Translations under genes and position numbers: made by a program
Shown here: positions 6,133 through 54,057 of the stretch, piece after piece
How positions within the stretch are numbered: position 1 is the stretch's first letter
Layout: each line of letters starts with the position of its first letter
Source: Candidatus Falkowbacteria bacterium
Lineage (GTDB): Bacteria; Patescibacteriota; Patescibacteriia; Patescibacteriales; UBA12465
DNA length: 64,000 bases
Assembly: GCA_037134915.1 (NCBI GenBank)
Contig: JBAXLJ010000002.1
Span: 64,935 to 128,934 of the forward strand
Direction: 5' to 3'
Notes under the pieces: generated by a model
Told to the model about the DNA's origin: nothing
The model's input: the letters and a program-made list of their open reading frames with translations, nothing else
Database searches by the model: none

Positions 6133-6136
6133 TTTT

Positions 6137-6886: not shown

Positions 6887-6893
6887 TTACTTA

Positions 6894-8009: not shown

Positions 8010-8024
8010 AATTTTTTATTTAAT

Positions 8025-9435: not shown

Positions 9436-10449
9436 ATGTCTCAAACTGTTAAACAATACCAAAAGCGATTTGAGTGGCCGGAAATTGGCAATGATAACTT
9501 AATTGAATTTTTGGACAGAAGCTTATTTCAGAAGAAATTAGCCCAAACTTATATTTTTGCCGGTCCCGAGGATTTAGGTAAGAGTACCATGGCTCTAGCT
9601 TTTGCGCGCAATTTAATCTTATCGGATCGTCAGGAGGTTCGAGATTTTTCGAGTGTTAACAGTGATTTACATATTCTGAACCGGGAACCGGGTAAGAAAA
9701 ATATTTCCATTGAAGCGGTTCGGGATTTTATTAAAATGTTGTCCTTGAGCTCTTTCTTAAATTCCTATAAAATTGGGATTATTAAAGGCGCTGAGACTTT
9801 GAGTTCTGAGGCCGCCTCGGCTTTACTTAAGACTTTAGAAGAACCTCGAGACAAGGTAATTATTATACTCCTTACTTCATCAGTTGATTTACTAATGCCC
9901 ACCATTGTTTCTCGCTCCCAAGTTCTATATTTTTATCCGGTGGCCTTTGATATTATTTATGATTATTTAGTTAAAGAGCTTAATTTAAAACGGGGTGAGG
10001 CTAAAAATATGGCCGCTCTGGCGGCGGGCCGTCCCTTGTTAGCGGTAAAATTTGCGGAAAATGAAGCTTTATATAACAGGCAATTGGAGGCAGCACGCCT
10101 TTTCTTAACTTTTTTTAACTTAAATATCCCCGATCGTTTATCCGCTTTGGCGGAATTTCTAAAAGGGGAGGGGGTTTTAAATCCTGATAAAGCGGCTGCT
10201 ATTTTAGAAATTTGGCAGCGCGCGGCCAGGGATTTAGCTTTAAATGCGGTGGCCTGTCCAGAATTAATCCAGCACACCGCTTTAAGCTCAGAATTAGATA
10301 GCGCGGGTGCCTGCCTGTCGTCTTTAAACAACGAAGAAGCTTTACGTCACCTTTGTAAAATATTAGACTTATTAAGTATGTTAAAGAATTATTTGGCGGC
10401 CAATGTGTCCCCCATTTTGGTTCTTGAACAAGTCGTTTATAATCTTTAG
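9436..10449 (+). CDS. holB: DNA polymerase III subunit delta prime
   Basis: AAA+ clamp-loader pattern: YIFAGPEDLGKST, LKTLEEP, TIVSRSQ (SRC-like motif). Confidence 0.8.
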   Translation: MSQTVKQYQKRFEWPEIGNDNLIEFLDRSLFQKKLAQTYIFAGPEDLGKSTMALAFARNLILSDRQEVRDFSSVNSDLHILNREPGKKNISIEAVRDFIKMLSLSSFLNSYKIGIIKGAETLSSEAASALLKTLEEPRDKVIIILLTSSVDLLMPTIVSRSQVLYFYPVAFDIIYDYLVKELNLKRGEAKNMAALAAGRPLLAVKFAENEALYNRQLEAARLFLTFFNLNIPDRLSALAEFLKGEGVLNPDKAAAILEIWQRAARDLALNAVACPELIQHTALSSELDSAGACLSSLNNEEALRHLCKILDLLSMLKNYLAANVSPILVLEQVVYNL

Positions 10450-10459
10450 TTAAAATATT

Positions 10460-11584
10460 ATGAAAAGCCAAAAAATTAGTTTTTTAGTACTATTACCGCT
10501 CCTGGCTCTTTCCTTGTCGGCCTGCTCCTTTTCGCTGTCCTCAAATTCTAGTGCGACTTCCGCGGGGCCAGATTTGGGCGGGGTGTTTCTGTCGCTTGAT
10601 AGCGGAGTTACTTTTAAACAGCAAGTGGCCATCCCTTCAGTTTCTGGTTTACCGGGCAGTATTGGTAGTCTAAACGTCCGCTCTTTAGTTCTAGACCCCT
10701 CGGATAACACCGCTATTTATCTAGCCAGTTATAAACAGGGTTTGTATTATTCTTATAATATCACCGCTGGTTGGAATGAGGCGAGCACTTTTCCAAAAGT
10801 CACTATTACTAACTTAGCCATTAATCCCGATAGTAAGTGTGATCTTTACGCGACCTTTGCTAATCGTTTATATAATTCGACTGATTGTGCTCGGACTTGG
10901 AAGCAGATTTATCTTGATTCCAATCAGAACGTGGTTTTTACCGCCCTGGCCATTGATTTTTATAACCCCGCTAATATTTATTTAGGAACTTCTGAAGGCG
11001 CCATTTTAAAGAGTATTGATGGAGGAACTTCCTGGCGGGTGATGAAACGACTCGACCAGTCAATTGCCAAATTAGTCTTATCGCCGCGTGATAGTCGTCA
11101 AATTTATGTTTTGACTCAAAATGCTAAGCTCTATACTTTTTTAACTAATACTAAAACTAACCCTAATACTTCGGCTGACCTAGAGGCTAATTTCGCGGTC
11201 GACAATTGGACCGATCTTAACTCAGTCCTAAAAGATTTGCAGATTGGGGACAATTTTCGTGATTTTGTAATTGTGCCAAGTGACGCTTCAATGTTTTTAA
11301 CTACCGATCATATGATTGCTAAATCTTTAGATCACGGAATTACTTGGCAAAAATTGAATTTGCTTCCTTCGGAGAAAGACGGTATTATAAGGACCATGGC
11401 CGTCAATCCTCAAAACCCCAAGCAGATTTATTACGCTACAAATTTAACTTTTTTTAGATCAATTGATGGCGGGGCGACCTGGTCTAATAAAAAATTACCG
11501 ACCAGCCGGGGCGCTTCCTCAATCGTCATTGATTATAAAAATCCCAATAATATTTATTTAGGTGTTAATGAAACTAGTAATTAA
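10460..11584 (+). CDS. lipoprotein with BNR/sortilin-type beta-propeller repeats (Ycf48-like)
   Basis: Lipobox LSLSAC after a signal peptide. Repeated SxDxGxxW motifs (SIDGGTSW, SLDHGITW, SIDGGATW, STDCARTW). Confidence 0.7.
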   Translation: MKSQKISFLVLLPLLALSLSACSFSLSSNSSATSAGPDLGGVFLSLDSGVTFKQQVAIPSVSGLPGSIGSLNVRSLVLDPSDNTAIYLASYKQGLYYSYNITAGWNEASTFPKVTITNLAINPDSKCDLYATFANRLYNSTDCARTWKQIYLDSNQNVVFTALAIDFYNPANIYLGTSEGAILKSIDGGTSWRVMKRLDQSIAKLVLSPRDSRQIYVLTQNAKLYTFLTNTKTNPNTSADLEANFAVDNWTDLNSVLKDLQIGDNFRDFVIVPSDASMFLTTDHMIAKSLDHGITWQKLNLLPSEKDGIIRTMAVNPQNPKQIYYATNLTFFRSIDGGATWSNKKLPTSRGASSIVIDYKNPNNIYLGVNETSN

Positions 11585-13806: not shown

Positions 13807-14841
13807 TTATTTAAGCGGTTCCATAACATTTTGTCCGCCATCTTCAATTCGGATTTCAGTCACACTAGCTGTCTGTGCACAAGTTTTTAGACTGTTGCTG
13901 TAAGTGGTCCAGATTTCTTTTTGAGAATTTCGAGCTTTATCGTTGGCTTTTTTCTGAGTATCTTGAAAAGTTTTATTGCAAGCATTTAAAGCTGTTTGTT
14001 GGTTACTGCTTAAAGCTAAAGCGGCCTTCTGACAAGTACCGCGGGCGCTAATGGCGCTGCTTATTTCTGAAGCTGCAGACGTCAGTGAGGCGCTAATTGC
14101 CACATCTTTCACATCAATAGCGGCGGAAGTGCAAGTTACTAAATTGGGAGTCATCGTTGGCAGGACGTAAGCGCTCTTTTTTCTAAGACCAAATAAATCA
14201 TTACCGATTTTTTTTATTTGATCAAATAATTTAATTTGTTCCGGCGACGCGATTCTTTCTAAAGTCGAAGTGGCCGGTGTGCCAGTGGCTTTATTTTCGG
14301 AATTATTTTTTTTAACACCAAATAAGTCTTGTCCGATTTTAACAATTTTTTCAAACAGATTGATGTGCTCTGGCGAAGGAATTCTTTGTAAAGTTGAGGT
14401 GCCCGAAGTGGTTACTAGGGTGCTGCTAGCACTGCCGGTGCTTAATTTAATAATTTCAGTTTGTGGCTTTCTGATACCAAATAAATCGTTACCGATTTTT
14501 CGGATTTCATTAAAATATTTAACATATTCCGGCTTCGGGATTTTTTCTAAATTTTTACCAATTACCAAAGTTGAGCTGGCATTATTTGGGCGTGGAGCGC
14601 CGTCTCGAGGCTCGATTCTGGGTGTGCCGCTGGCGATTCCGCTTTCTGGGTTAGCCGAAATCAGCATGGGAACGGGGGCGGTGCTGCTGCTAGTTTCCTC
14701 GGAATTAAAAGAGGTTAGCATTGGGACCGGTGGGTTCAAATTAGAAGTAGTCGTGGCGGTGTCTTCTGCTAGAACTGGCATCTGTGCCGTCATGGCAAAA
14801 ATAAAGGAAAAAACCAAGGCGATCGGAATAGTTTTTTTCAT
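13807..14841 (-). CDS. secreted protein with three tandem STL-x-RI-x-SPE-x-I-x-LF...KIGxDLFG repeats and a Cys-containing C-terminal domain
   Basis: Signal peptide MKKTIPIALVFSFIFAMTAQMPVLA. Start set at 14841 because a TTGAGT-17-TGtTATAAT promoter (14898-14870) lies downstream of the track's ATG at 14898. Confidence 0.7.
   Translation of the reverse strand: MKKTIPIALVFSFIFAMTAQMPVLAEDTATTTSNLNPPVPMLTSFNSEETSSSTAPVPMLISANPESGIASGTPRIEPRDGAPRPNNASSTLVIGKNLEKIPKPEYVKYFNEIRKIGNDLFGIRKPQTEIIKLSTGSASSTLVTTSGTSTLQRIPSPEHINLFEKIVKIGQDLFGVKKNNSENKATGTPATSTLERIASPEQIKLFDQIKKIGNDLFGLRKKSAYVLPTMTPNLVTCTSAAIDVKDVAISASLTSAASEISSAISARGTCQKAALALSSNQQTALNACNKTFQDTQKKANDKARNSQKEIWTTYSNSLKTCAQTASVTEIRIEDGGQNVMEPLK
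14176..14577 (-). repeat. three in-frame tandem repeats (about 135-160 nt each) inside the secreted protein gene
   Basis: DNA cores accaaataaatcattaccgatttt / accaaataagtcttgtccgatttt / accaaataaatcgttaccgatttt, encoding KIG(N/Q)DLFG. Confidence 0.8.
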
Positions 14842-14869
14842 AATTTTAAAATTAATTAATAATAGTGAA

Positions 14870-14898
14870 ATTATAACAGAAAATGGCTTTTTACTCAA
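14870..14898 (-). promoter_or_regulatory. sigma70-like promoter of the repeat-protein gene
   Basis: Minus strand reads TTGAGT, 17 nt, TGtTATAAT. Confidence 0.55.
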
Positions 14899-17730: not shown

Positions 17731-18189
17731 ATGAAAAAAGTTTTTGAACCCAAACCGGGGCAAGTTGATTTTACTAATATTCGCTGGGCGCCGGTTATAA
17801 ATTGCGTTCTTAAATATAATGACAAGTTGTTAGTTGTTCAACGTAGCCTGGAGTTGAATTTTTATCCCGGTTATTGGACGGGTATTTCTGGATTTTTAGA
17901 TGACAGTAGAAGTTTGCATCAGAAAATTGCCGATGAAATAAAAGAAGAATTAGGGCTGTCTAAAAATAAAATAAAAGAGATTAAAATCGGAGAGATTTTT
18001 GATCAAGATGAGCCAAAATATAAAAAAACTTGGATTGTCCATCCAATTTTAGTTGAGGTGACAACTGATAAAATTCGTCTTGATTGGGAGGCTAAAAACT
18101 ATCAGTGGCTTACTTTGAAAGAGATAAATCAATTAAAATTGCTTCCAGGTTTTGATGAGGTTTTAAAACGTATATCTTCTTGGGTATAA
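17731..18189 (+). CDS. Nudix-family hydrolase (Nudix box partly degenerate)
   Basis: GFLDDSRSLHQKIADEIKEELGL fits the spacing of GX5EX7REUXEEXGU, but E is replaced by R and RE by DE. Confidence 0.7.
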   Translation: MKKVFEPKPGQVDFTNIRWAPVINCVLKYNDKLLVVQRSLELNFYPGYWTGISGFLDDSRSLHQKIADEIKEELGLSKNKIKEIKIGEIFDQDEPKYKKTWIVHPILVEVTTDKIRLDWEAKNYQWLTLKEINQLKLLPGFDEVLKRISSWV

Positions 18190-19467: not shown

Positions 19468-19673
19468 TTAAACTCGGTAAATATAAACATTACAAAGGTA
19501 ATGACTATGAAGTCATCGGCCTAGCTCATCATAGCGAAACTTTGGAAGATTTAGTGGTTTATCGTGCGCTTTACGGAGACTTTGATTTATGGGTCAGGCC
19601 GCTATCAATGTTTTTAGAAAACGTCGAAATAGATGGGGTAACGAGGCCAAGATTTAAGTATCTTGATAAATAG
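19464..19673 (+). CDS. DUF1653-family small protein
   Basis: YKHYKGNDYEVIGLAHHSETLEDLVVYRALYGD..LWVRPLSMF matches my recollection of DUF1653. ATGA overlap with ppa. Confidence 0.7.
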   Translation: MIKLGKYKHYKGNDYEVIGLAHHSETLEDLVVYRALYGDFDLWVRPLSMFLENVEIDGVTRPRFKYLDK

Positions 19674-19674
19674 T

Positions 19675-20106
19675 ATGATTTATAAAACCGAACCCGAAAA
19701 TTTTATTTCTCGATTTGAAGTTGTGAGCTGTTATGTCGAGCATGACGGTAAAATTTTAATTTTGCATCGCCAGAATCACAAACCGCAGGGAAATACCTGG
19801 GGGCTGCCAGCTGGTAAAATTGACGGTAACGAAGATAAAATCGAGGCCATGCTAAGAGAAATTTTTGAAGAAACTGGATACAAAATTGATTTGTCTAATT
19901 TAGAATATTTGGATAAAGTTTATGTAAAATATCCAGAATATTCTTTTATCTATCACATGTTTCGTTTAGTCGTAAATAGTGAGCCCTTAATTAAAATAAA
20001 TCCTGAGGAGCACCAAGATTTTAAATGGGTATCACCTAACGAAGCGCTTAACCTAGAGTTGATTCAGGATTTAGAAGAGTGTCTTAAGATTTCCTATAAG
20101 TTATAA
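19675..20106 (+). CDS. Nudix hydrolase
   Basis: Perfect Nudix box GKIDGNEDKIEAMLREIFEETGY. ATG at 19675 preferred over TTG at 19663. Confidence 0.85.
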   Translation: MIYKTEPENFISRFEVVSCYVEHDGKILILHRQNHKPQGNTWGLPAGKIDGNEDKIEAMLREIFEETGYKIDLSNLEYLDKVYVKYPEYSFIYHMFRLVVNSEPLIKINPEEHQDFKWVSPNEALNLELIQDLEECLKISYKL

Positions 20107-20110: not shown

Positions 20111-20596
20111 ATGACTTTCATCGATCCTAAAACTTATTATCAGAATCTGCCACAGAAACGAATGGCGGTAGCCGCTCTGTTTTTTAATGAACAGGGGCAG
20201 GTTTTAGTTTTAAAAACTAGCTATAAAAAACACTGGACTTTGCCGGGTGGGGTTGTGGAACATAATGAATCTCTGAGTCTAGCACTTGTTAGAGAAGTTA
20301 AAGAAGAAACTGGCTTGGCTGTTATTAATTATAAACTAGCGGTTTTAGATTATTGTGCCCCTAAGATTGTAAATGAAGTTCAAAACACGGAATCACTGCA
20401 GATTCTGTTTGACTGCGGGGTTCTTGATAAGACAGCGGAATCATCCATTAAAATTGATCATGATGAAATTGTGGAGTATAAATTTTGCTCATCCGCCGAG
20501 GCTTTAAAAATATTAGGCATCCCTTTGCGCCGCCGACTTAGTTCTTATTTGGAAGTAAAGCGGGCGGTTTATCTGGAAAACGGCTTAAACATTTAA
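20111..20596 (+). CDS. Nudix hydrolase
   Basis: Perfect Nudix box GGVVEHNESLSLALVREVKEETGL. Confidence 0.85.
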   Translation: MTFIDPKTYYQNLPQKRMAVAALFFNEQGQVLVLKTSYKKHWTLPGGVVEHNESLSLALVREVKEETGLAVINYKLAVLDYCAPKIVNEVQNTESLQILFDCGVLDKTAESSIKIDHDEIVEYKFCSSAEALKILGIPLRRRLSSYLEVKRAVYLENGLNI

Positions 20597-20841: not shown

Positions 20842-21375
20842 ATGATGAAATTTATTACCGGTAACATTAATAAATTTATCGAAGTGCAAAGCATTTTTCC
20901 GGACATTGAACAATTAGATATTGATTTACCGGAAATTCAAAGTCTAGATCCTCAAGAGATTGTGGCCTTTAAATTAAAAGCCGCCCTAGATCACGTCTCG
21001 GGTAATTTTATTGTGGAGGACACCTCACTTTATTTAGATGGGCTCCATGGCTTGCCGGGGCCACTGATTCGTTGGTTTTTAAAAGCTATGGGACGAGAAG
21101 GTTTAGCTAAAGTCGCTTTGTCTTCAGGCAACGATCGGGCAACCGCTAAAACGATTATTGGTTATGCCGATGAAATTGGTGGGGTCCATTATTTTGAAGG
21201 CTCTATTTCAGGTCGAATTGTGATGCCGCTGGGAGAAACTTCTTTTGGTTGGGACCCGATTTTTCAGCCCGACGGCTATGATGTTACTTTTGCGGAAATG
21301 GGCCCTGAGGAAAAGAACCGGATTAGTATGCGCCGCCAAGCCTCTCAAAAGTTAGCTGATTTTTTAAATAAGTAA
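20842..21375 (+). CDS. rdgB: non-canonical purine NTP pyrophosphatase (RdgB/HAM1 family)
   Basis: [11 protein letters not shown]..., [26 protein letters not shown] and ISMRRQA are HAM1/ITPase blocks. Confidence 0.85.
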
Positions 21376-25937: not shown

Positions 25938-25967
25938 AGACCTCGCTTAATTGGCGGGGTCTTTTTT
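25938..25967 (+). terminator. rho-independent terminator after htpX (overlaps the 3' end of the convergent ORF)
   Basis: agacctcgc / gcggggtct stem (one G-U pair), loop ttaattg, T-run 25963-25967. Confidence 0.7.
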
Positions 25968-26318
25968 AAGATGCTTTAAAATTTCGTGAGTTTTTTTGTA
26001 TACGACGTTAGCTCTTTTGCGTAGATAATAATTCTGCACGTGGTGCATTAAGCCGCTTTTACGTTGAAACACTTCGTTGGTTTCAATAAAGTTATCAATA
26101 GCCTTCTTTAACTCAGTGATTTGTTCACGGGAAGAATGCGCCTCTAGATGGTGGTCAAAATCTTGGCGGTAAGCCCTAAGGGTTGAAATATAATGACCAT
26201 CTTTATTTTTCTTTTCCCAAATGTTGTTAAACAATTCCGGATTAAAAATTCGGCCAATCCAATCAAGTCCGCTATCAATTGTGATGGCGTCTTTCGCTGA
26301 TAAATTTTTTGAGTTCAT
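25947..26318 (-). CDS. hypothetical protein (123 aa, His-rich, no recognisable domain)
   Basis: The ORF fills the gap and has its own TTGACA-16-TAAAAT promoter (26372-26345, minus strand). Confidence 0.55.
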   Translation of the reverse strand: MNSKNLSAKDAITIDSGLDWIGRIFNPELFNNIWEKKNKDGHYISTLRAYRQDFDHHLEAHSSREQITELKKAIDNFIETNEVFQRKSGLMHHVQNYYLRKRANVVYKKTHEILKHLKKDPAN

Positions 26319-26344
26319 ATCGATGGTTTTAAGGTTCTACTTTT

Positions 26345-26372
26345 ATTTTAGTCTAGGTAGCTTATTTGTCAA
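26345..26372 (-). promoter_or_regulatory. sigma70-like promoter of the 123-aa orphan gene
   Basis: Minus strand reads TTGACA, 16 nt, TAAAAT. It lies directly downstream of the terminator of the preceding minus-strand gene. Confidence 0.6.
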
Positions 26373-26374
26373 AT

Positions 26375-26412
26375 AAAAAAGACCCCAAAATGCGTTAAGC
26401 AAGTCGGGGTCT
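26375..26412 (-). terminator. rho-independent terminator after the 148-aa gene
   Basis: Minus strand reads agacccc ... ggggtct followed by a T-run (plus-strand A-run 26375-26379). The loop is long (19 nt). Confidence 0.6.
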
Positions 26413-26440
26413 ATGAGATAATTGAGAGGAGTTAATAAGG

Positions 26441-26887
26441 CTAGGCTTCAGTTTTTTCTAATCTTTTTATTTTTAATGTCAATATTACTATAATAAGTGA
26501 AAGCGCAGCGCTGACTATAAAGAGAAACTCAAATTTAGTCTCGCCTCTTTCTGCTTTTCCTGTGGCTCTTGCATAATCATCTTTTAATAGAGCAATTTCC
26601 TCTTCAAGATCCTCCTTTTGCTGCTCCATTTTCTGCAGTCTGGTATCGTAGATGCCATCTTTGGCATTAGTTAGTTTCCACAGATCCTCAGGCAAGTCTG
26701 AATATCTCAGCTGCGAAATTGTCGGATTCATCAGACTGGAGCTGGTAATCCAGGTCCGGTTGAGATCGCTCGAAAGATTGTAGATGGTAATTTTCTCACC
26801 TTCTTTTACCAAAACATACTCAGTAGCGGCAGCGGCAAAATTAATTGCCATCATCACCACAATAATAATCAAAAATAATTTTTTCAT
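26441..26887 (-). CDS. hypothetical envelope protein (signal peptide, coiled coil, C-terminal TM anchor)
   Basis: MKKLFLIIIVVMMAINFAAAA signal-like N-terminus, the heptad-like segment QKMEQQKEDLEEEIALLKDDY, and the hydrophobic FLFIVSAALSLIIVILTL near the C-terminus. Confidence 0.55.
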   Translation of the reverse strand: MKKLFLIIIVVMMAINFAAAATEYVLVKEGEKITIYNLSSDLNRTWITSSSLMNPTISQLRYSDLPEDLWKLTNAKDGIYDTRLQKMEQQKEDLEEEIALLKDDYARATGKAERGETKFEFLFIVSAALSLIIVILTLKIKRLEKTEA

Positions 26888-32244: not shown

Positions 32245-32790
32245 ATGTCGCACTTAAAATATTATTTTGAGTGGTTTTTTTATTCTTTATTCTTTTCTGG
32301 GGTAGCGATTATTCAAGCTGCTTTTATTTCGGCATTGCCACCGGTTTATGCCGCCATTAATTTACCTTTAACCTGTCTGCTTTTCAGTCTCCTAGTTTTT
32401 AATAAAGAAAAGACTTTAGTTTTTGCCATTCTGATTGGTTTTTGGCTCGACATCTTGAACTTTAATTTTTTTGGTTTAAATATTTTAATTTTTTTAGCCA
32501 CCTTTTTTATTATTGATTTTTTATTAAATAACTGGCTGACCAATCGTTCGCTGTATTCTTTTCTGGTCTTATCATCACTAAGTGTCGTCATTTACAATAT
32601 TTTACTTTACTTATTTTTGGCTATTAGTCATAGCGGACAAGCAGGTTTTAGTTTCTTTCTGTTTCAGTCGAGTTTTTGGATACAGTTGGGTTGGCAGATA
32701 ATTTGGGGCGGTATTTTTATGCTTTTATTCTTTAATGTCGCTAATTTTTTATCCCGTCGCTTGAAACCGTTCTTTTTGGAAAATAAATAA
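32245..32790 (+). CDS. mreD: MreD-like polytopic membrane protein
   Basis: 181 aa, five or so hydrophobic segments. The call rests mainly on its position immediately after mreC. Confidence 0.55.
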   Translation: MSHLKYYFEWFFYSLFFSGVAIIQAAFISALPPVYAAINLPLTCLLFSLLVFNKEKTLVFAILIGFWLDILNFNFFGLNILIFLATFFIIDFLLNNWLTNRSLYSFLVLSSLSVVIYNILLYLFLAISHSGQAGFSFFLFQSSFWIQLGWQIIWGGIFMLLFFNVANFLSRRLKPFFLENK

Positions 32791-38041: not shown

Positions 38042-40072
38042 ATGAGAAAATTGCTAACATCTTTTTTGATAGTTCTGTTTTTGTTTTTTCTGGTCCTTCC
38101 AGTTGAAGCAGGCATTACACCTAATGATCCTTATTATTCAAGGCAGTGGTATCTGCCTAGAATCGAGGCTGATTCAGCGTGGACTAAAGTTAAAGAAACC
38201 CCAGATATTACAGTCGCTGTCATTGACTCGGGAGTAGATATCAACAATCCTGATCTTAAAAATAATATCTGGATTAATCCCAAAGAAATTGCCGGCAACG
38301 GTTTAGATGACGATCATAATGGTTTTATCGATGATGTAAACGGTTGGGATTTTGTGAATAATGTGCCCGATCCGTCACCTAAATTTGATGACGGCTGGAC
38401 TGAAGCGGGTATTTCTCACGGCACAATGGTGGCCGGGATTATTGGCGCCGAAGGTAATAATGGTATTGGTGTTACCGGGGTTACTTGGAAGGCCAAAATT
38501 ATGCCCCTTCGGGTTTTAAATGATAAGGGTGAAGGAAAAATTAGCGCCGTAGTTCGAGCGATTGACTACGCTGTCGCTAATGGAGCTGATGTTATTAATT
38601 TAAGTTTTGTTACCTATAATTATAGTGAAGCGCTTTATGGCGCAATTTATCGAGCCTATCGCGCTGGAGTAGTAGTGGTTGCGGCGGCGGGCAATGATCA
38701 ATTAAATGTCGAGGGGCGAAATACTAGCAAATCACCAATTTATCCCGCCTGTATGGATGGGCCTAATGGTGAAAATATGGTTATCGGAGTCGCAGCTACC
38801 GATGCTTTGGATCAGAAAACTCCTTTTTCTAGCTATGGTTTTAGTTGCATTGATATTACGGCTCCAGGGATTAGTTTTTTTAATACCATTACCTACGGTG
38901 GTAATGCTCAGGCCCAGGATCCAAATTATGATGGTTATTGGTCGGGAACTAGTATGGCAGCACCAGTTGTCTCCGGTGTGGTAGCTCTAGTTGCCCAGGT
39001 TAATCCAGATTTAAGCCGATCGGAAATTATCAATTTAATTTTGGGTTCAGCTAATAATATTAGTTTGCTAAATCCGGATTATTTAGGGCAACTGGGTCAT
39101 GGCCGAGTTAACGCTAATGGTGCTGTTAATCTAGCCCGTGATAAGATGTATGATCACATCACTAGATTACTAGTCGCGCCTTCCTCAGGTTCTAATAAAA
39201 TTAAGATTACCAGTGTTAGCGGGGCTACGGTGAGTGAATTTTCAGTGCCTGATTTTAAAACTGGTTTTAATGTCGCCAGCGGTGATGTAAATGGCGATGG
39301 GGAAAGTGAAATTATTTTAGCGGCCGAAAAAGGCAGTCAACCTTGGGTGCGCATTTATGATAAAAAAGGAAAACTACTTAAACAATTTTTAGCCTACGAT
39401 AAAAATTTTAAAGGGGGTGTTAGATTAGCGGTTGGTGATTTTTCTAATCACGGCGTGGCTGATATTATTGTGGCCCCCGGTCCAGGCGGTGGACCTCATG
39501 TTAGGGTTTGGAGCGGCGACGGAAAACTGCTGCGACAATTTTTCGCTGATGATGCTAAAACTCGAGGCGGCTTAACGGTTGCGATTGGCGACTTGGATAA
39601 TAACGGTCAAAATGAATTAGTGATTGGGGCCGGCGTCGGTCGCCAGCCATTTGTTAAGATATATAGTAATCAACTTAAATTACAAGGATCATTTTTAGCT
39701 TTTCCTAAAGATTATTTAGGTGGTGTTAATTTGGCGGTCGCTAGTATGTATGGACGACTAGATCATCATAAACAAAGCATTGTGGTGGCTCCGGCGGGAA
39801 AATATCGCCCCTTGGTTAAGGTTTATAATAATTCTGGGGTTCTTAAAAAACAATTTTTAGCTTATGGCGAAAATTGGCAGGGCGGAATTAATATTGCCGC
39901 GGGCGACATCAGTAATGATGGTAAGGCGGAAATTATTACGGGTGCCAAAAGTGGCGCGACACCGCATGTTCGTGTTTTTGACGGGGAAGGCGGGCTAATT
40001 GATTCTTTTTACGCTTATGAGGATACTTTTTCTGGCGGCGTCAGTGTTGGCTTACTCAAATTTAATAATTAG
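38042..40072 (+). CDS. secreted S8 subtilisin-like serine protease fused to an FG-GAP/VCBS repeat beta-propeller
   Basis: Signal peptide. Catalytic D (VAVIDSGVD), H (HGTMVAGII) and S (GTSMAAPVVSG). The C-terminus has 5-6 repeats such as GDVNGDGESEII, GDFSNHGVADII, GDLDNNGQNELV and GDISNDGKAEII. Confidence 0.85.
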   Translation: MRKLLTSFLIVLFLFFLVLPVEAGITPNDPYYSRQWYLPRIEADSAWTKVKETPDITVAVIDSGVDINNPDLKNNIWINPKEIAGNGLDDDHNGFIDDVNGWDFVNNVPDPSPKFDDGWTEAGISHGTMVAGIIGAEGNNGIGVTGVTWKAKIMPLRVLNDKGEGKISAVVRAIDYAVANGADVINLSFVTYNYSEALYGAIYRAYRAGVVVVAAAGNDQLNVEGRNTSKSPIYPACMDGPNGENMVIGVAATDALDQKTPFSSYGFSCIDITAPGISFFNTITYGGNAQAQDPNYDGYWSGTSMAAPVVSGVVALVAQVNPDLSRSEIINLILGSANNISLLNPDYLGQLGHGRVNANGAVNLARDKMYDHITRLLVAPSSGSNKIKITSVSGATVSEFSVPDFKTGFNVASGDVNGDGESEIILAAEKGSQPWVRIYDKKGKLLKQFLAYDKNFKGGVRLAVGDFSNHGVADIIVAPGPGGGPHVRVWSGDGKLLRQFFADDAKTRGGLTVAIGDLDNNGQNELVIGAGVGRQPFVKIYSNQLKLQGSFLAFPKDYLGGVNLAVASMYGRLDHHKQSIVVAPAGKYRPLVKVYNNSGVLKKQFLAYGENWQGGINIAAGDISNDGKAEIITGAKSGATPHVRVFDGEGGLIDSFYAYEDTFSGGVSVGLLKFNN

Positions 40073-41127: not shown

Positions 41128-41161
41128 TAAAAAATCCCACTTCTTAGAGTGGGATTTTTTA
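41128..41161. terminator. bidirectional rho-independent terminator between convergent operons
   Basis: atcccact / agtgggat 8-bp stem (41134-41155), A-run upstream, T-run downstream. Confidence 0.85.
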
Positions 41162-42241
41162 TAACTGAGCTAATATTTTTTGGGTGTAGTTTTCATTAAT
41201 TGGCAGCGGTGGACTAGACACTCCTTTTGCAATAAATTCCGTAATCGCCATAATCAAGCTATCGAGATTGTCTGGCTCAAATAAGAGCCCGCCAAAGCGC
41301 TCAATTAGTTCTGGAATGCCACCCAAGTTAGCCGCGATCACCGGTGTTTTAACGGCCGCCGCTTCATAGATAACGGTGGGCGAGTTTTCGTAGCAGCGGG
41401 AGGGAATAATAAGCGCTAAACTATCACTAAGCAACTGACTAACGTTTTCAGGATTTTTTCGGCCGAGTAATTTTAGATTACTGGTTTCGGTGATATCTTT
41501 AAGTGAGCCATCACCGACGACTAAGAAATTATAATCCGTAAATCTAGCGGCCGCGGCCGCAAATAAATCTAGGCCCTTGTGATATTCTAATTGGCCGACG
41601 AAGATAAAGCTTTTTGAACGGGCAGCAGCTGGTTTACCATCGGAAAACGGGTTGGCAATCACTAACTTTTTATTTTTTTTAAATAGGCCGCAAGACAAAT
41701 GCAAGTTAAGCAGCCATTTAGAAGGTGAGACTATAATAACCTGAGATGAAAACATAACGGCGGTGACTCTTTGATAAATTTTAGCCATTACCGATTTAAG
41801 TATTTTTTCTTGACCGAAATACATTAAGCCGGAAGGGTGAAGTAATTGGATGTCGTGTAAAACTTGAATGTGGCGCGCTGATGATTTTTTAATCGCTAAG
41901 GGAATTAGCAGACCTAGTCCCATTAAATTGTGGGAGATGATAAGTTCCGGTTGCTCTTTTTTTAAGATATTTGAAACTTGATGATATTTTTTTAAATTTA
42001 CTAAATTACCCAGCTGCCAAAATAGTCGTTTAAGGTAAGGCCACTTAGATAAATCACTATAGCTTGATTCTAGATAATAAACTCCGGATTCTTCTAAGTC
42101 TTTCCTGGTTCTTGGTTTAGTGCTAATAATAAAAACCGTCTGCCCAGACTGGCGCAACTCAGTCGCCATTAACTCCACGATGCGTTCGGCGCCTCCGCGG
42201 TTATATGGTTTGTAGAGATTATTTATTAATCCGATTTTCAT
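41159..42241 (-). CDS. glycosyltransferase family 1
   Basis: MKIGLINNLYKPYNRGGAERIV, FIFVGQLEYHKG, IIPSRCYENSPTVIYEAAAVKTPVIA. Confidence 0.85.
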   Translation of the reverse strand: MKIGLINNLYKPYNRGGAERIVELMATELRQSGQTVFIISTKPRTRKDLEESGVYYLESSYSDLSKWPYLKRLFWQLGNLVNLKKYHQVSNILKKEQPELIISHNLMGLGLLIPLAIKKSSARHIQVLHDIQLLHPSGLMYFGQEKILKSVMAKIYQRVTAVMFSSQVIIVSPSKWLLNLHLSCGLFKKNKKLVIANPFSDGKPAAARSKSFIFVGQLEYHKGLDLFAAAAARFTDYNFLVVGDGSLKDITETSNLKLLGRKNPENVSQLLSDSLALIIPSRCYENSPTVIYEAAAVKTPVIAANLGGIPELIERFGGLLFEPDNLDSLIMAITEFIAKGVSSPPLPINENYTQKILAQL

Positions 42242-43398
42242 ATAAAAATCTTCCTTAATTTATCTTCAACCTGATTCCAAGAGTAAGTCGCAGTGGCATA
42301 AGTCCGGGCATTTTTACCCATAACCAGCCTTTCATTTTCATTATTGATTAAGGTATCAATTTTTTTTGACAAATCTTGGGCGTCACCGGTCTTAGCTAAT
42401 AAGCCATCTACCCGGTCCCTAAAAACCCGACGGACACCAGGTAAGTCCGAGGCAATAACCGGCAGACCGCAGGCCATAGCTTCAGTTAAGACGATGCCGA
42501 AAGCTTCATGGCGATTAATTGAAGGCAAGATGAAGATATCTGAATCTTGATAAGTTTTAATTAGCTCTGAGTCACTCAAGCGGCCTAAAAATTTTATTTT
42601 CTTGATTAATCCTAAATTTTCCGCCTGTCTCTGATAATCAGATTTTAAATTGCCGGAGCCAACAATATTTAGTTGCCAGTGTTTATTTTCTAATTTAGTT
42701 AGCGCTTCAAACAAAACCGATAAGCCTTTAAAATAATGGGCACTATCTAAGCCGCCGACAAATAATAGATTGACCAGGCCGCGCTTAATGAAATTTTTGG
42801 TTACAAAGTTTACAATCTCTTTGGTTTTGGCAATTAAGCCGTGATTATTTTCTGGTAATTTAGGACTAAATAAATTAGTGTCCAAGCCAAAAGGAATTTC
42901 TTGAAATTTGTCTGGGTATTTTTTGTAAAATTCTGAGATCTGACTATTTCGAATATAATCTAGGCTGCCAGATATAATCGTGCTAGCCCGTTTGAATAAG
43001 CGGTCACGGATTAAGCGACTAGGCCAGGCTAGTGGTTTTAAATACCAAGCTAAGTTTTGTGTATCCATGTGATAATGGATAACTAGCTTAGTCTTTTTAT
43101 TAAACAGCAAATAAAGCCAAATTATTTCTGTGGCCCCAAAAAATGGGTAGTGCAAGTATAAACAATCAAATTCTTTTAAAGAGTTAAGTAAAGAAAAGGG
43201 TAGTCCGCCGTGTCCATATCTAATTAGGGGCTTTAAATATTTAACAGGATCACTGCTAATAGCGGTTTCAGTTTGCGGCGCCAAGGTAAAAGTGACCACT
43301 TGGTGGTCAGAACTTAAGATTTCGCCATAACGTTTGGCGCTTTGGCCGATGCCGCCGACGTAGGGCGGAAAGGCGCACACTATTTGAGCTATTTTCAT
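42238..43398 (-). CDS. glycosyltransferase family 1
   Basis: MKIAQIVCAFPPYVGGIG, LLFVGGLD, FILPSINRHEAFGIVLTEAMACGLPVIA. 4-nt overlap with the downstream GT1. Confidence 0.85.
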   Translation of the reverse strand: MKIAQIVCAFPPYVGGIGQSAKRYGEILSSDHQVVTFTLAPQTETAISSDPVKYLKPLIRYGHGGLPFSLLNSLKEFDCLYLHYPFFGATEIIWLYLLFNKKTKLVIHYHMDTQNLAWYLKPLAWPSRLIRDRLFKRASTIISGSLDYIRNSQISEFYKKYPDKFQEIPFGLDTNLFSPKLPENNHGLIAKTKEIVNFVTKNFIKRGLVNLLFVGGLDSAHYFKGLSVLFEALTKLENKHWQLNIVGSGNLKSDYQRQAENLGLIKKIKFLGRLSDSELIKTYQDSDIFILPSINRHEAFGIVLTEAMACGLPVIASDLPGVRRVFRDRVDGLLAKTGDAQDLSKKIDTLINNENERLVMGKNARTYATATYSWNQVEDKLRKIFI

Positions 43399-43401
43399 AA
43401 A

Positions 43402-43731
43402 TTATTTTTTGAGCAAGGTTATTTCCCGTGTCAGGTCGGTTAGGTCGCGATCCAATTTAGCTAAGCGCAAACGAAGCTTAAAAATAAAATAAAATAGAAT
43501 TAAAATAGCGCCGTAGAAAAGTAAATTAATACCACTAGCCGAGAAGCCAAGGGCAGCGGCTAAATGATCTAATTCTTTTAAAAATAAAATAGCTATGGCA
43601 GAGGCTATCCAGAAACTTAGCCATAGGATAAATTCGTTACCACCTACTTGTTTTTTATTCTTTTGCTTAAACAGGCGATAAACAAAAAAAGCGATAATAA
43701 TTAAAGCTAAAAATTGTTGCAGACTGATCAT
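43402..43731 (-). CDS. DUF2304-family small membrane protein (usual partner of polyprenol-phosphate GT2 enzymes)
   Basis: 109 aa, hydrophobic helices plus a C-terminal amphipathic LRLRLAKLDRDLTDLTREITLLKK. Matches my recollection of the DUF2304 pattern and its context next to GT2. Confidence 0.65.
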   Translation of the reverse strand: MISLQQFLALIIIAFFVYRLFKQKNKKQVGGNEFILWLSFWIASAIAILFLKELDHLAAALGFSASGINLLFYGAILILFYFIFKLRLRLAKLDRDLTDLTREITLLKK

Positions 43732-43732
43732 G

Positions 43733-44389
43733 TTATTTGATGAAATTATGAATAATTAAGTCTTTTATAATTTTGAAGCCGCCGCCAAAGCTTTGGCCAA
43801 ATTCATGGTAGGTGACTGTAATCGGAACTTCGACGATTCGGGCACCACTCTTAAAAGTTTTGTACAGGATTTCACTGCAATGGGCCATGCCGCGGTTTTC
43901 AATTTTAATTTGGCTCAGAGTTTGGCGATTTAGCGCCCTAAAACCACTTTGTGGATCACTTAAGGTGATGCCGAAGAAACGATTAATTAGTCTCGCTAGG
44001 GGCATGATAACCACTCTTTTGATGTAAGGGAAATTAGCGCTACCTAAAAAGCGTGAGCCAAAAACAGCGTCCGCTTTATTTTCTATAATTGGCTTAATTA
44101 AATCTTTAATTTCTTCAGCTTTAAATTGGTCGTCAGCGTCAAAGTGGACCACAATATCAGCATCATGATTTAAAGCATATTCATCGCCGGTTTGAAGGGC
44201 GGCCCCTTGGCCGCGATTAATTGGATGGCGCAGGACAATAGCTGTGGTTGTTTTAGCTAACTCGTAGGTATTATCGCTAGAACAATCATCAACAATAATT
44301 ACCTCATCAACTAGTGGGCTAACTTTAGCGACCACTTTGATAATATTCTGACTTTCATTGTAGGCTGGAATAACACAACTGATTTTCAT
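43733..44389 (-). CDS. glycosyltransferase family 2 (Dpm1/GtrB-like polyprenol-phosphate glycosyltransferase)
   Basis: ISCVIPAYNESQNI, IIVDDCSSDNT, HFDADDQ, and no TM tail. Confidence 0.85.
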   Translation of the reverse strand: MKISCVIPAYNESQNIIKVVAKVSPLVDEVIIVDDCSSDNTYELAKTTTAIVLRHPINRGQGAALQTGDEYALNHDADIVVHFDADDQFKAEEIKDLIKPIIENKADAVFGSRFLGSANFPYIKRVVIMPLARLINRFFGITLSDPQSGFRALNRQTLSQIKIENRGMAHCSEILYKTFKSGARIVEVPITVTYHEFGQSFGGGFKIIKDLIIHNFIK

Positions 44390-45480
44390 AATTTTTTAAT
44401 TGAGGATAAGCGGTGTTTAGTAATAAATTTACTAATTGATATTAAGCCGTTAGCCGCCTTTTGTAAAATATCGGAAGCCAGGGTAGAGATTACGGCAACT
44501 TCTTGGTTATTTAGCTTAATTAGACTAAAGGTGGCAATTAGCCCTTTGGTTCCTAAATGATGACATTTAGAGCAGCCCTGACTAGTAAAGAAAAATTTGG
44601 GTTTATATTTTTTTTCAAAAGGCCAATATTTGGTAATTAGTTCTTCGGATTCAGAAATGGCATAAGCCTTTAAGCATTTGGGGCAATTTTTTTTGATTAG
44701 TTTTTGAAAAATGACTAAGGTTTCTAAATCATCTTTTTGACTAAGGCTTTGAATCTTTTCACTGAGAGTGGTGACATTATCACTTTTAATTCCCACTAGG
44801 ACTAAGCGTCCGGCTCGAGCCGCAATCACAGCCTCGCTTAGCAATTTATCGTCAGCATCGTCAATCATAATGACTTCGCTGTTGTTTTTAATTATTTCCG
44901 ATAAATCATTGAGGCGTTTTTGTCCTTGGCTAAGGATTCGGCTGACCTCATCAAGCTCTAGTTCAGAGTATCTCTCCAAGGCATAACAAGTTCTTTTTTC
45001 TTTATTTATTTTTTGGAGTAGGGCATAGAGAGTAGTCGTCTTGCCCTGATTATCATCCGCCCCGACTATAATAAGGCCTCTTCTTTTGTTTAAGATTTTC
45101 TCGATTAACTGCCTTTCGCTTCGACCTAGACCTAAACGGGGTAAAGTGAGTAATTTTTTGTCTTTATTATTTATTTTGATGATTATTTTTTCACCGTCAT
45201 TTTCGGGAATAATTGATAAATGAAAGGCGGCTTCGGCGGTTTTTAAATAGGCATTGCTGATTAAATCGCTAGAAGCTAGAGCGGTTAGTTCACGAAAAGC
45301 GAGGCCCAAATCTTTTTCTAGATGAATTGGAATCTTGAGTTCATGAGATTTTAATCCGTTATTGGCTAGTAAAATATGATGACCAGCTGATTTAGTGATA
45401 GCCAAATCAAAGATTTCGTGTTCACGGGCATAATCTAGGATTTTTTTGATAATTTTAGATTTCATATCTTTATTATACAT
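44386..45480 (-). CDS. PilB/GspE-like secretion-ATPase homologue with degenerate catalytic motifs
   Basis: GKTTTLYALL, GEKIIIKI and the CPKC...CSKC module are retained. Walker A is GADDNQGKT, the His box is AGRLVLVGIKSD. The likely true start is ATG 45465, because TATAAT at 45477-45472 lies 6 nt upstream of it. Confidence 0.7.
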   Translation of the reverse strand: MYNKDMKSKIIKKILDYAREHEIFDLAITKSAGHHILLANNGLKSHELKIPIHLEKDLGLAFRELTALASSDLISNAYLKTAEAAFHLSIIPENDGEKIIIKINNKDKKLLTLPRLGLGRSERQLIEKILNKRRGLIIVGADDNQGKTTTLYALLQKINKEKRTCYALERYSELELDEVSRILSQGQKRLNDLSEIIKNNSEVIMIDDADDKLLSEAVIAARAGRLVLVGIKSDNVTTLSEKIQSLSQKDDLETLVIFQKLIKKNCPKCLKAYAISESEELITKYWPFEKKYKPKFFFTSQGCSKCHHLGTKGLIATFSLIKLNNQEVAVISTLASDILQKAANGLISISKFITKHRLSSIKKL

Positions 45481-45551
45481 TATTTATATTATTTTTAAAA
45501 TGTGTTAAAATATTATGGTAAATCATATTTAATCAGATTTTTGCTAGTTTT

Positions 45552-45965
45552 ATGCTATATTCAAAATTCTACGAACGTTTTTATTCTCTGCGGCTGAAAG
45601 CGGCTAATGCTTTCGGCGATTTTTTTGGTTTTTGGCCAAATTTGGTTTATTTATCGGTTATTTTTTTATTTCAGGCGGCCTCTTGGTGGCTCTCTTATTA
45701 TATTTTTAAAAATTTAACCGGTAATTTGTTGGTACTGCATTATAATGTTGATTTTGGAATCGACTGGATTAGTGATTTAAATTCGATTTTTTATTTTCCG
45801 CTTCTGGGTTTGTTGTTTTTATTTTTGTCTTTAGTACTTATCTTTATTTTTGGTTCCGGGCGCCATTCTCGGTTTGAGTCGCACTGTTTGATGTCGGGGG
45901 CCGCCTTAGCTAATCTAGGTATGTTAGCCGCTTTAACCTTAGTTTATATAATTAACTTTAGATAG
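45552..45965 (+). CDS. hypothetical polytopic membrane protein
   Basis: 137 aa with three or four hydrophobic segments, directly upstream of mraY. Confidence 0.5.
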   Translation: MLYSKFYERFYSLRLKAANAFGDFFGFWPNLVYLSVIFLFQAASWWLSYYIFKNLTGNLLVLHYNVDFGIDWISDLNSIFYFPLLGLLFLFLSLVLIFIFGSGRHSRFESHCLMSGAALANLGMLAALTLVYIINFR

Positions 45966-52573: not shown

Positions 52574-53350
52574 TTAGTTTGGTCCGATAAATTCCACTCC
52601 GCCAGTAAAGTACTGACGAAAAACTTTTTGGATTTTGGGGAGCAGGTCTGTCCACTTAACGCTGGACTCTTTTTTGATATTGAATTGATAAGCATCTTTA
52701 GCCTCCATTTGCGTTACTGTATCAAACCGGTCGACAACCCCTGGTATATCACCCAGAAGAATGCCTAAACGCACATGGTCGCTGGTCATTTTTTTCATAT
52801 GACAATTTAATTGGTCATCTTCAATGTATTGGAACGAAATAACTATTTTTTCATTCATCCAGCTGTATTTTCTATTAAGATAAATAAACAGGTGCTTCAG
52901 GATCAAATCGTCGATTTGGTAGAAACTGGTGGCCGGTGATTTCAAAAGTAGTAGTTGGTGGCTATTTAGAACCGACACTTCCACTAATTCTGGTATCGCT
53001 TCTCTTAGGGCGCGACGATCTTCGCCGTTAAAATTAAAAGGCAGGGAGGAAGCAAAAATTAATTTATCCTTGTCTTCGGTTTTTCCAAATACCTTGACTG
53101 TGCGAATTTTAATTTTTTCGTTTTGCCAGTTTATAAAAATACTTGGATCACTTCCGTTTCTAAAATATTCTTCCAAACCTCGAATTCGAAACTCTTCTTC
53201 GGGCTCTGGTTTCTTTTTTGCTTCGGGCTCTTTGGCTTCTTTCTTTCTGTAACTGTGTAGAGCAAAAAGGGTAAATACTGAGCCTAAGATCAAAACGATG
53301 GCTAATCCGACGTAAAAACGGGATTCTAGCGTTAAAATAATTGTTATCAT
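52574..53350 (-). CDS. hypothetical N-terminally membrane-anchored protein with an apparent internal duplication
   Basis: TM helix FYVGLAIVLILGSVFTLFAL, a KE/P-rich linker, then two similar modules (IPELVEVSVLNS... / IPGVVDRFDTVTQ...). No recognisable family. Confidence 0.55.
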   Translation of the reverse strand: MITIILTLESRFYVGLAIVLILGSVFTLFALHSYRKKEAKEPEAKKKPEPEEEFRIRGLEEYFRNGSDPSIFINWQNEKIKIRTVKVFGKTEDKDKLIFASSLPFNFNGEDRRALREAIPELVEVSVLNSHQLLLLKSPATSFYQIDDLILKHLFIYLNRKYSWMNEKIVISFQYIEDDQLNCHMKKMTSDHVRLGILLGDIPGVVDRFDTVTQMEAKDAYQFNIKKESSVKWTDLLPKIQKVFRQYFTGGVEFIGPN

Positions 53351-53370
53351 ATTGTGAAGGTGCTAATTTT

Positions 53371-53471
53371 CTAGTAAACGCTACTAGATTACGGATTTTG
53401 ATGGCTACTAGCCGTTCAAGGTATGGTTCTTTACCTCATAATTCCAAGCGTTAGGAATGGCTAGATTCTAG
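53371..53471. promoter_or_regulatory. cluster of three CTAG-centred palindromes in the divergent control region
   Basis: ctagta-N5-tactag (53371-53387), ggctaCtagcc (53403-53413), ctagaTtctag (53461-53471). GCTACTAG and ATGGCTA are each present twice. Confidence 0.6.
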
Positions 53472-53493
53472 TATATTTGTTTATATTTGTAAA
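53465..53493 (-). promoter_or_regulatory. sigma70-like promoter of the 258-aa orphan gene
   Basis: Minus strand reads TTTACA (53493-53488), 17 nt, TAGAAT (53470-53465). The -10 box lies inside the third palindrome. The predicted leader is about 105 nt. Confidence 0.5.
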
Positions 53494-53505
53494 TAGTTAG
53501 CGCTC

Positions 53506-53537
53506 TTGACGTAATTTAATAAAAGTTGTAAATTACG
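53506..53537 (+). promoter_or_regulatory. sigma70-like promoter of the 157-aa orphan gene, overlapped by a 9-bp inverted repeat (putative operator)
   Basis: TTGACG (53506-53511), 17 nt, TAAATT (53529-53534). The inverted repeat cgtaattta (53510-53518) / taaattacg (53529-53537) spans both boxes. Confidence 0.55.
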
Positions 53538-53583
53538 ATGAGTTCTTTAATAATAAAATATTAACTTTTAAAAATTATAAATC

Positions 53584-54057
53584 ATGGATTTAAAAATGAG
53601 ACAGGAATTAGTGCAGACTTGTGGCACTATTACCAATTTTAATTATGCATATTGTTCTATTCTCTACGAGAAATTATACTGGTTATTGAGAAGTGACATC
53701 ATCGATGCTAATGGGAATCAATTTGTGATTTTTGGTATCGAGGCTGGTGATTGGGTAAGAAGATATCAGAACAGACTTGATGTAACTCAAAAAGCTCTTG
53801 ATAAGTATAATCCGAATGATGACGAAGAAAATGTTAGAAACGATTATCAAAAAAATCTTAACATTTCCCACATTATTATCAAAGATGAATCGCTACTTCC
53901 AGTAATAATTGAACATCTTGAAGAACAAACAAAAATCAAAAGTCGTATATTTTTTGCTTCTAACGGCTACATTGAATTAGAAGAGCTTAGAAAATTCATT
54001 AATGAAGTTAACCTGTTCTTCGGACAAGTAAAGGAATTTTTAGAGATGTTTGGATAA
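53584..54057 (+). CDS. hypothetical protein (157 aa, no recognisable domain)
   Basis: ORF bracketed by its own promoter and a strong terminator. Hand count over 53581-53940 gives about 32% GC. Confidence 0.55.
   Translation: MDLKMRQELVQTCGTITNFNYAYCSILYEKLYWLLRSDIIDANGNQFVIFGIEAGDWVRRYQNRLDVTQKALDKYNPNDDEENVRNDYQKNLNISHIIIKDESLLPVIIEHLEEQTKIKSRIFFASNGYIELEELRKFINEVNLFFGQVKEFLEMFG

Follow-up and report, generated by a model that had tools for sequence, protein, structure and literature searches.

The stretch of DNA considered here, hereafter the window, is 64,000 nucleotides of contig JBAXLJ010000002.1 (positions 64,935 to 128,934, forward strand) from the Candidatus Falkowbacteria assembly GCA_037134915.1, and our subject is a set of five tightly packed open reading frames (ORFs) on its minus strand at 41159-45480. 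The set is headed by the gene for a protein with the fold of the secretion ATPases PilB and GspE and continues with genes for a glycosyltransferase of family 2 (GT2), a small DUF2304 membrane protein and two glycosyltransferases of family 4 (GT4a and GT4b). A first-pass annotation, made by a model from the letters and their ORFs, had placed the five genes, their overlaps and their short gaps exactly as found here, and its naming of the partners was upheld by Pfam. The first product matched T2SSE (PF00437; 5.5e-25, 88.2 bits against a gathering cutoff of 24.9), the second Glycos_transf_2 (PF00535; 1.3e-26, 94 bits), the third, which lies 1 nt 3' of the GT2 gene, DUF2304 (PF10066; 8e-19, 68 bits), and the fourth and fifth Glycos_transf_1 (2e-43 and 8e-22), both of these having the GT4 make-up of a Glyco_transf_4 N-domain and a Glycos_transf_1 C-domain (GT4a 148 bits; GT4b 78 and 41 bits). 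The best NCBIfam match of the GT2 was the polyprenyl-phospho-GalNAc synthase PpgS (7e-46, 156.5 bits, the family cutoff being 370 bits). Neither a flippase nor a GT-C transferase is encoded in the five-gene operon.

Overlaps of 4 nt, of the ATGA type, occur at 44386-44389, where the GT2 start meets the stop of the ATPase-like gene, and at 42238-42241, and the other spacers are 1 and 3 nt. Directly after the last stop codon stands a hairpin with a perfect 10-bp stem (AAAATCCCAC/GTGGGATTTT) and an 8-nt loop (41131-41158); the first-pass annotation had rightly seen a closing hairpin with a T-run, but had given it 8 bp and set it at 41134-41161. T-runs flank the hairpin on both strands and it reads as a terminator either way, though unlisted by the pattern scanner; it probably serves as a terminator both for GT4b and for the epimerase gene that converges on it. 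At the other end of the operon, the conserved nominal N-terminus MYNK of the ATPase-like protein (ATGTATAATAAA; codons ATG-TAT-AAT-AAA, 45466-45480) holds a TATAAT box at 45472-45477, with TTTAAA sitting 16 nt upstream of it, and the NCBI gene model and all orthologues of the subfamilies B and C described below start at the residue that corresponds to M6 (45465). Since the box lies within the MYNK codons and these other starts agree, the true start is probably M6, which would give a protein of 359 residues and a very short leader, i.e., a near-leaderless mRNA.

Table 1. Features of the five-gene operon and of its first gene and its GT4a insertion (window coordinates).
Feature	Position	Strand	Length	Description
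ATPase-like protein	44386-45480	-	364 aa (nominal ORF)	PilB/GspE-fold, N1-less, subfamily A; catalytically altered
GT2	43733-44389	-	218 aa	soluble; candidate GacI/PpgS-like polyprenyl-phosphate-HexNAc synthase
DUF2304 protein	43402-43731	-	109 aa	small membrane protein; family of GacJ/Rv3632
GT4a	42238-43398	-	386 aa	first GT4 glycosyltransferase
GT4b	41159-42241	-	360 aa	second GT4 glycosyltransferase; overlaps GT4a by 4 nt
Divergent promoter region	45466-45551	-		predicted; shared with the small137-MraY-FtsW-MurG unit
Former Arg finger H87, codon	45220-45222	-
Former Arg finger K102, codon	45175-45177	-
P-loop GKT	45037-45045	-		Lys is K147
E173, codon	44962-44964	-
D207/D208, codons	44857-44862	-
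Former His box, R225 codon	44806-44808	-
Former His box, K232 codon	44785-44787	-
Cys4 module	44563-44685	-
GT4a insertion	42769-42843	-	aa 186-210	clade-specific, HGLIAKTKEIVNFVTKNFIKRGLVN; just before the C-domain strand LLFVGGLD

That the first product carries the fold markers of the type II/IV secretion ATPases, as had been read from the letters, was borne out by profile and by structure. In phmmer alignments against the PDB, residues 87-326 fell into one and the same register with EpsE of V. cholerae and with the PilB proteins of Geobacter and Thermus, and the AlphaFold (AF2) model, built on a 108-sequence alignment with a pLDDT of 87, superposed over its full length on the N2D+CTD core of 5TSH with a TM of 0.77, the top Foldseek matches being PilB 5TSH, 5ZFR and 5TSG (TM 0.73-0.78). 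The tetracysteine Zn module (Cys4) is retained (C266, C269, C303 and C306). The N1 domain (GSPII/MshEN, PF05157) is gone: it gave no match, and it is the N2D of canonical PilB to which residues 10-85 align. Scores against the NCBIfam equivalogs were 95 bits for GspE (TIGR02533, cutoff 630) and 84.5 for PilB (TIGR02538, cutoff 676). In the first protein a PilB core is left, i.e., N2D, CTD and Cys4 without N1, and the protein is descended from the type IV pilus extension ATPase PilB.

The ATPases of the PilB/GspE family are regarded as obligate motors, in which the Arg fingers, the catalytic Glu and the His box occur almost without exception. When the window protein is set against EpsE, the Walker A GPTGSGKS has become ADDNQGKT, the GPTGS before the GK having been replaced and two Asp introduced; the Asp box EDPIE has become ERYSE; VVMVGEIRD, the Walker B and catalytic Glu region, has become VIMIDDADD (Gly to Asp and Glu to Asp); and the His box TGHLVMSTLHTN has become AGRLVLVGIKSD. 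An alternative register was looked for and rejected, phmmer against the PDB and a 209-sequence MAFFT alignment giving the same one, and no other restores the Walker A, Walker B, Asp or His boxes. The earlier claim that every catalytic signature deviates was therefore correct in register, but ADDNQGKT still fits the generic P-loop pattern [AG]x4GK[ST], and one key acidic residue, E173, is kept. Universal in PilT-like ATPases are Walker A, Walker B and the catalytic Glu E395, and also the Arg fingers R271 and R286, the Mg-binding Asp-box Glu E357 and the His-box H420 (McCallum et al. 2017). In a mapping to PilB of G. metallireducens that assumes a 20-residue tag implied by the chain coordinates, and with which all spacings agree, the Arg fingers R271/R286 correspond to H87/K102 and are both lost, E357 corresponds to the retained E173, the Walker B region corresponds to D207-D208 with the catalytic Glu E395 now Asp (D208), and H413/H420 correspond to R225/K232, both His being lost.

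A search that covered 5.8 billion proteins placed the window protein in a sharply separated group, subfamily A, of 54 clusters whose members are 346-365 aa long, show 39-100% identity and bear the labels Ca. Falkowbacteria or Patescibacteria; canonical PilBs came next, at E ~1e-22. Among 52 subfamily A sequences, GKT, D207, D208 and Cys4 are each present in all, position 225 is Arg or Lys throughout, E173 is kept in 51 and E169 in 49, and the K232 position is variable. The former Arg-finger positions are unconserved, 87 being K, R, L, H or N and 102 being N in 30 sequences, K in 15, Q in four and R in two. As GKT, the two Walker B acids and the Glu that binds Mg are invariant, subfamily A probably still binds nucleotide and Mg. 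Efficient inter-subunit ATP hydrolysis is unlikely; judged by its conservation, the site is remodelled under constraint, not decayed, and "dead" is too strong a word for it.

Erosion is greater in two further subfamilies. Subfamily B (~117 clusters, 288-354 aa) has had its Cys4 module deleted, its P-loop Lys is Arg in 14 of 116 sequences and the following Ser/Thr is lost in about 25 of the 116, and its Asp-box and Walker-B acids are unconserved, while subfamily C (~360-369 aa) keeps Cys4 and has Leu or Ala for the P-loop Lys in four of five loci and in protein P0361. Ring-forming and N2D positions are kept across all three (P92, G96-E97-K98, G117, G135, G224-R-L and Q259). The first-pass proposal of a pseudo-enzyme stood only in part: the motor residues are indeed replaced, but the term is proven just for those members of the sister subfamilies that have no P-loop Lys, subfamily A keeping GKT, DD and Glu. 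The lineage is a narrow one, since a profile search that covered 1.84 billion representatives exhaustively gave just 182 clusters at E<=1e-30, about one third of them short N1-less forms. Two high scorers of ~1000 aa from outside the window (P0362 and P0366) proved to be tandem fusions of two complete canonical PilB cores and not relatives of interest here. The idea that one contig carries both an A and a B paralogue was dropped, the two contigs in question being different records that happen to share a length of 98,239 bp. The ATPase-like gene had dN/dS values of 0.058, 0.089 and 0.082, similar to those of its neighbours, though its dN was 2-3 times higher; these values come from our own NG86 implementation and 3-4 usable pairs, dS being saturated in most. 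Such values clearly point to a protein that is fast-evolving but functional and under purifying selection.

The five-gene neighbourhood was conserved in every examined relative with the gene, more than 60 loci, the order being the same in L001-L015, L033-L035 and L037 (our numbers for the loci) and in about 45 metagenome loci. At every subfamily A locus MurG-FtsW-MraY-small137 is followed by the divergent ATPase-GT2-DUF2304-GT4a-GT4b and then by a convergent epimerase-S8/FG-GAP peptidase-GT4-MreB. The 4-nt overlap between the ATPase-like and GT2 genes is preserved in related loci, and the conserved overlap and adjacency suggest co-expression. The entire region of ~20 kb is, however, syntenic, and for this reason adjacency to the glycosyltransferase genes is weak evidence of a functional tie and searches were re-anchored on GT2. 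Among GT2-anchored loci, the slot upstream of GT2 holds a member of subfamily A, B or C, a canonical PilB, nothing, or an epimerase gene. The canonical PilB of L092 (4147-5883, 578 aa) has every motif intact and lies 117 nt upstream of GT2, and L093 has a canonical PilB fragment in the slot. The slot is empty, with small137 abutting GT2, in L036, L044, L060, L063, L065, L084, L111, L115 and L116, and the epimerase gene occupies it in the rearranged order of more distant lineages.

Neighbor-joining (NJ) trees of the neighbouring genes only, in which A, B and C were each a clade (91-100% bootstrap), placed the three together in one clade (75.5% and 97.5%) with an ATPase-less clade as sister (99.5%), and the canonical-PilB loci L092 and L102 branched as outgroups; L093 was left out. 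Direct descent from an L092-type PilB was also sought by bit-score, and this was not decisive, L092 ranking 1-3 for B and one C member and 6-43 for others. The most economical history that these trees and slot contents allow would be in four parts: a pilB gene originally resided beside the GT2 operon, N1 and the motor residues were lost once in the ancestor of A, B and C, further erosion took place in B and C, and the gene was lost in the sister clade. From that ancestor onwards, the gene has stayed at the head of an operon of GT2, DUF2304 and two GT4 genes in Falkowbacteria-type Patescibacteria. The pairing with a glycosyltransferase operon that had drawn the attention of the first-pass annotation is thus conserved, but as outgroups carry canonical PilB in the same slot, it was inherited from an ordinary pilB position.

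Several further observations were made at the slot and around the operon. L098 holds an intermediate form, in which Walker B reads MLDE, the Glu of the Asp box is missing and the His box has become Tyr. The canonical PilB of the outgroups stands alone beside GT2-DUF2304-GT4, without PilC, PilT or pilins. At the ATPase-less L036, a pilin-like gene (10218-11294, minus strand) with an AFTLIE prepilin motif and N_methyl and Fib_succ_major matches lies between GT4b and the epimerase gene, and this was the sole locus with a pilin-like gene near the operon in the scans for pilus genes. In subfamily C loci, an opposite-strand gene of 146-155 aa with multiple transmembrane segments splits GT2 from DUF2304 (L054, 6694-7161, minus strand; L069, 5121-5561, minus strand).

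A link between the altered ATPase and its glycan genes is suggested at GT4a. All GT4a proteins of the A, B and C loci that were scored (39 of 39) carry an insertion of ~21-25 aa, varying by subfamily, with the conserved core IVxFVxxxFIK[KR], and none of eight loci that are ATPase-less or have a canonical PilB does, both canonical loci being without it. The insertion and the degeneration of the ATPase go back to one and the same branch, and what these distributions indicate is a co-origin of the two, not a statistical association. Covariation in rate was measured by a partial Mantel test on pairwise distances, from which the species signal (MraY+FtsW distances) was removed. T2SSE covaried most strongly with GT4a, with r=0.57 (p=0.0014) in subfamily A and r=0.56 (p=0.013) in subfamily B, a result that replicates in two independent clades, and it also covaried with DUF2304 (r=0.26 in A; r=0.46, p=0.0002 in B). 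No covariation was seen in A or B between T2SSE and GT2 (r=0.23 and 0.01) or the equally fast-evolving GT4b (r=0.29 and 0.09). GT2 and DUF2304, a known pair of the GacI-GacJ type, gave comparable values (r=0.37 and 0.60). The first-pass annotation had emphasised GT2; the evidence pointing to the operon concerns GT4a, through insertion and covariation, and DUF2304.

We consider there to be an even chance that the product of the first gene, a former PilB, acts no longer as a motor but as a scaffold or regulator in the glycan pathway, non-catalytic or very slow and nucleotide-dependent. A ring or scaffold of this kind would do no mechanical work and would modulate or organise a membrane-associated glycosyltransferase complex, its likeliest contact being GT4a, possibly via the clade-specific helix-like insertion, and/or DUF2304; in subfamily A the retained nucleotide binding may serve as a switch, and the glycan pathway itself could run without the protein. 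As a precedent, such a role resembles the signalling of M. xanthus PilB to exopolysaccharide synthesis. Possible, though less probable, is a narrower version in which the ex-motor would be a dedicated, hydrolysis-independent subunit of the glycosyltransferase complex, its ring docking on the GT4a helix and DUF2304 and gating or organising the synthesis of a lipid-linked envelope glycan beside the dcw genes, with nucleotide occupancy in A acting as the switch.

A number of observations weigh against a regulator or scaffold of the glycan pathway. The operon persists without the ATPase gene in the sister clade (L036, L044, L060, L111 and L116), and for this reason the ATPase-like protein must be an accessory that the pathway can do without. 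Given the region-wide synteny, the adjacency could be a matter of history only. The co-occurrence of insertion and altered ATPase amounts to one or two evolutionary events, A, B and C being a single clade, and the insertion, which is helix-like and moderately amphipathic, could equally be a membrane anchor. Partial Mantel tests are liberal for related sequences, and the covariation is to be taken as exploratory. Lastly, the invariant GKT, DD and ExxxE of subfamily A would also suit a real, if unusual, enzyme.

The last of these points leads to the reading that subfamily A proteins are divergent but active ATPases, in which a hexamer with a rebuilt site powers the assembly or export of the glycan, e.g., by flipping or extracting lipid-linked sugars. 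In that site the Walker B Asp would have been regained, Asp would be the catalytic base and Arg/Lys would replace the His box; GKT, D207D208, E169/E173, R/K225 and Cys4 are (near-)invariant in the 52 sequences, the Walker-B change of Gly to Asp recurs in A, C and L098, and the operon has no flippase gene of its own. We think it improbable all the same, as both trans-acting Arg-finger positions are unconserved, there is no PilC/GspF-like platform upon which a motor could act, the pathway survives without the gene, and the positional orthologues in B and C have lost the P-loop Lys/Ser and the Walker B acids yet stay under selection. That the gene is a functionless remnant of pilB heading for loss is far less credible still, although its rate of evolution is 2-3 times that of the genes around it and it has shrunk progressively (from 364 to 288 aa) and is absent from the sister clade; ORFs are intact in ~170 protein clusters (90% identity), each subfamily has invariant residues of its own, and the selection data (dN/dS 0.05-0.09) effectively refute decay.

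Alternatively, the protein might still belong to the type IV pilus machinery, as a regulator or decoy that forms mixed hexamers with canonical PilB or competes with it, its place beside the glycosyltransferases being merely historical. The canonical PilB in the same slot of the outgroups would be expected under this reading, as would the conservation of N2D and ring-forming positions across A, B and C, and canonical PilB-PilC-pilin clusters do exist elsewhere in Falkowbacteria metagenome-assembled genomes, and PilB has signalling roles in M. xanthus. We nevertheless hold it to be rather unlikely. The N1 domain, which is thought to touch the stator/PilM, is gone, covariation is with GT4a and DUF2304, and the conserved overlap with GT2 suggests translational coupling. 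There are no pilus genes within the 64 kb either: the first-pass annotation had noted none adjacent, and when ~55 ORFs of the window were scanned with Pfam, canonical PilB was run through phmmer and pilin motifs were sought by regular expression, the whole window yielded no second T2SSE, no PilC, no pilin and no further Pfam domain of pilus proteins, nor were platform (PilC/GspF) or pilin genes present in the flanks of related loci. In addition, no canonical PilB match neighbours the window accessions MEI6835606/07, and a canonical PilB in the same genome could not be shown.

Comparison with characterised systems sets the glycan-regulator reading in context. With PilB/GspE (G. metallireducens PilB 5TSH/5TSG; V. 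cholerae EpsE 1P9R) the window protein shares the N2D+CTD fold, the P-loop GKT, the Mg-binding Glu and the tetracysteine, but it is without N1, Arg fingers, catalytic Glu and the His-box His, has Asp for the Walker B Gly, and has no PilC/GspF, PilM or pilins nearby. The retraction ATPases PilT/PilU are likewise N1-less N2D+CTD proteins of ~350 aa; unlike the window protein, which is nearer PilB/GspE (E 1e-20 vs 1e-4), they keep all catalytic motifs and have no Cys4. PilB of M. xanthus controls the production of exopolysaccharide in a manner independent of pilus assembly, and forms with a defective Walker A, deficient in ATP binding, still signal (PMC11656802). Both cases would connect a PilB-type protein with polysaccharide synthesis, although for the window protein an effect on a glycan is only inferred, and there a working motor moonlights, whereas here a separate copy that has no motor residues is hard-wired into a glycan operon. 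As for the partners, DUF2304 proteins of the GacJ/Rv3632 type bind and stimulate a GT2 polyprenyl-phosphate-HexNAc synthase (Rush et al. 2017). As in GacI/GacJ of S. pyogenes and PpgS/Rv3632 of M. tuberculosis, the operon has a small GT2 directly before a DUF2304 membrane protein, and here too the rates of the two covary; unlike in those systems, a T2SSE-family protein heads it, and no GT-C or Wzx flippase is encoded.

We know of no T2SSE-family protein associated with the GacI/GacJ or PpgS/Rv3632 systems, and a search of NCBIfam produced no curated family that covers the ATPase-like protein, relatives of which appear in databases as "ATPase, T2SS/T4P/T4SS family", "PilB" or "TadA". No paper in the searchable full-text literature describes a degenerate PilB within an operon for a glycan or mentions such a pairing, in keeping with the first-pass annotation, which had named it a candidate undescribed system. 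One practical consequence is that the ~170 clusters should not count as evidence of pili or secretion. A broader one concerns the envelope of Patescibacteria, which is central to their episymbiotic lifestyle and about whose glycan synthesis and regulation, to our knowledge, almost nothing is known; the operon offers a lead into that biology. One slot, moreover, holds a natural series, from an intact motor to a form with the motor residues gone and nucleotide binding probable, to one with the P-loop Lys gone, to no gene, with the altered forms still under purifying selection; it is a ready-made experiment on a secretion-ATPase ring without catalysis. The data also name a testable partner, the GT4 with the co-arising insertion, and were the protein indeed a hydrolysis-independent subunit of a glycosyltransferase complex, it would be the first pseudo-enzyme of secretion-ATPase descent to be given a place in glycan biosynthesis.

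The rest of the window is made up of cell-wall genes (MraY, FtsW, MurG, MurC and MurB), the cell-shape gene MreB, genes for sugar-nucleotide enzymes, a second glycan cluster and housekeeping genes. No tRNA gene or Rfam family reached threshold across 1-64000. The possibility of a defence or conflict system was raised by weak Pfam matches to nSTAND and GT4-conflict domains, which led nowhere, and PADLOC was empty for all six proteins. Divergent from the ATPase-like gene and directly before MraY is the gene for small137 (45552-45965, plus strand), a multi-pass membrane protein of 137 aa without a Pfam or PADLOC match that is kept in every related locus, including the ATPase-less ones; it thus appears to be a so far uncharacterised member of the dcw cluster in this lineage. 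ORFs of 120-363 aa without a Pfam match occur at 13807-14898 (minus), 25947-26887 (minus), 32245-32790 (plus) and 52574-54057. Three NUDIX hydrolase genes lie within 3 kb of one another (17731-18189, 19663-20106 and 20111-20596) and are followed by a gene for a Ham1-family NTP pyrophosphatase (20842-21375). The second glycan cluster (77-9347), separate from the operon, encodes a GT4 (602-1846), four GT2 (at 1853, 2816, 3538 and 6089), three SAM-methyltransferase-like proteins (at 77, 4559 and 5434), a cytidylyltransferase-like protein (6924-8009, minus) and a Bac_transf priming phosphoglycosyl transferase (8025-9347, minus). Beyond the epimerase, a secreted subtilase (Peptidase_S8) fused to FG-GAP repeats (676 aa; 38042-40072, plus) always accompanies the epimerase and a third GT4 beside the operon, and it is linked to GT2-DUF2304 even in distant lineages in which the order has been rearranged.

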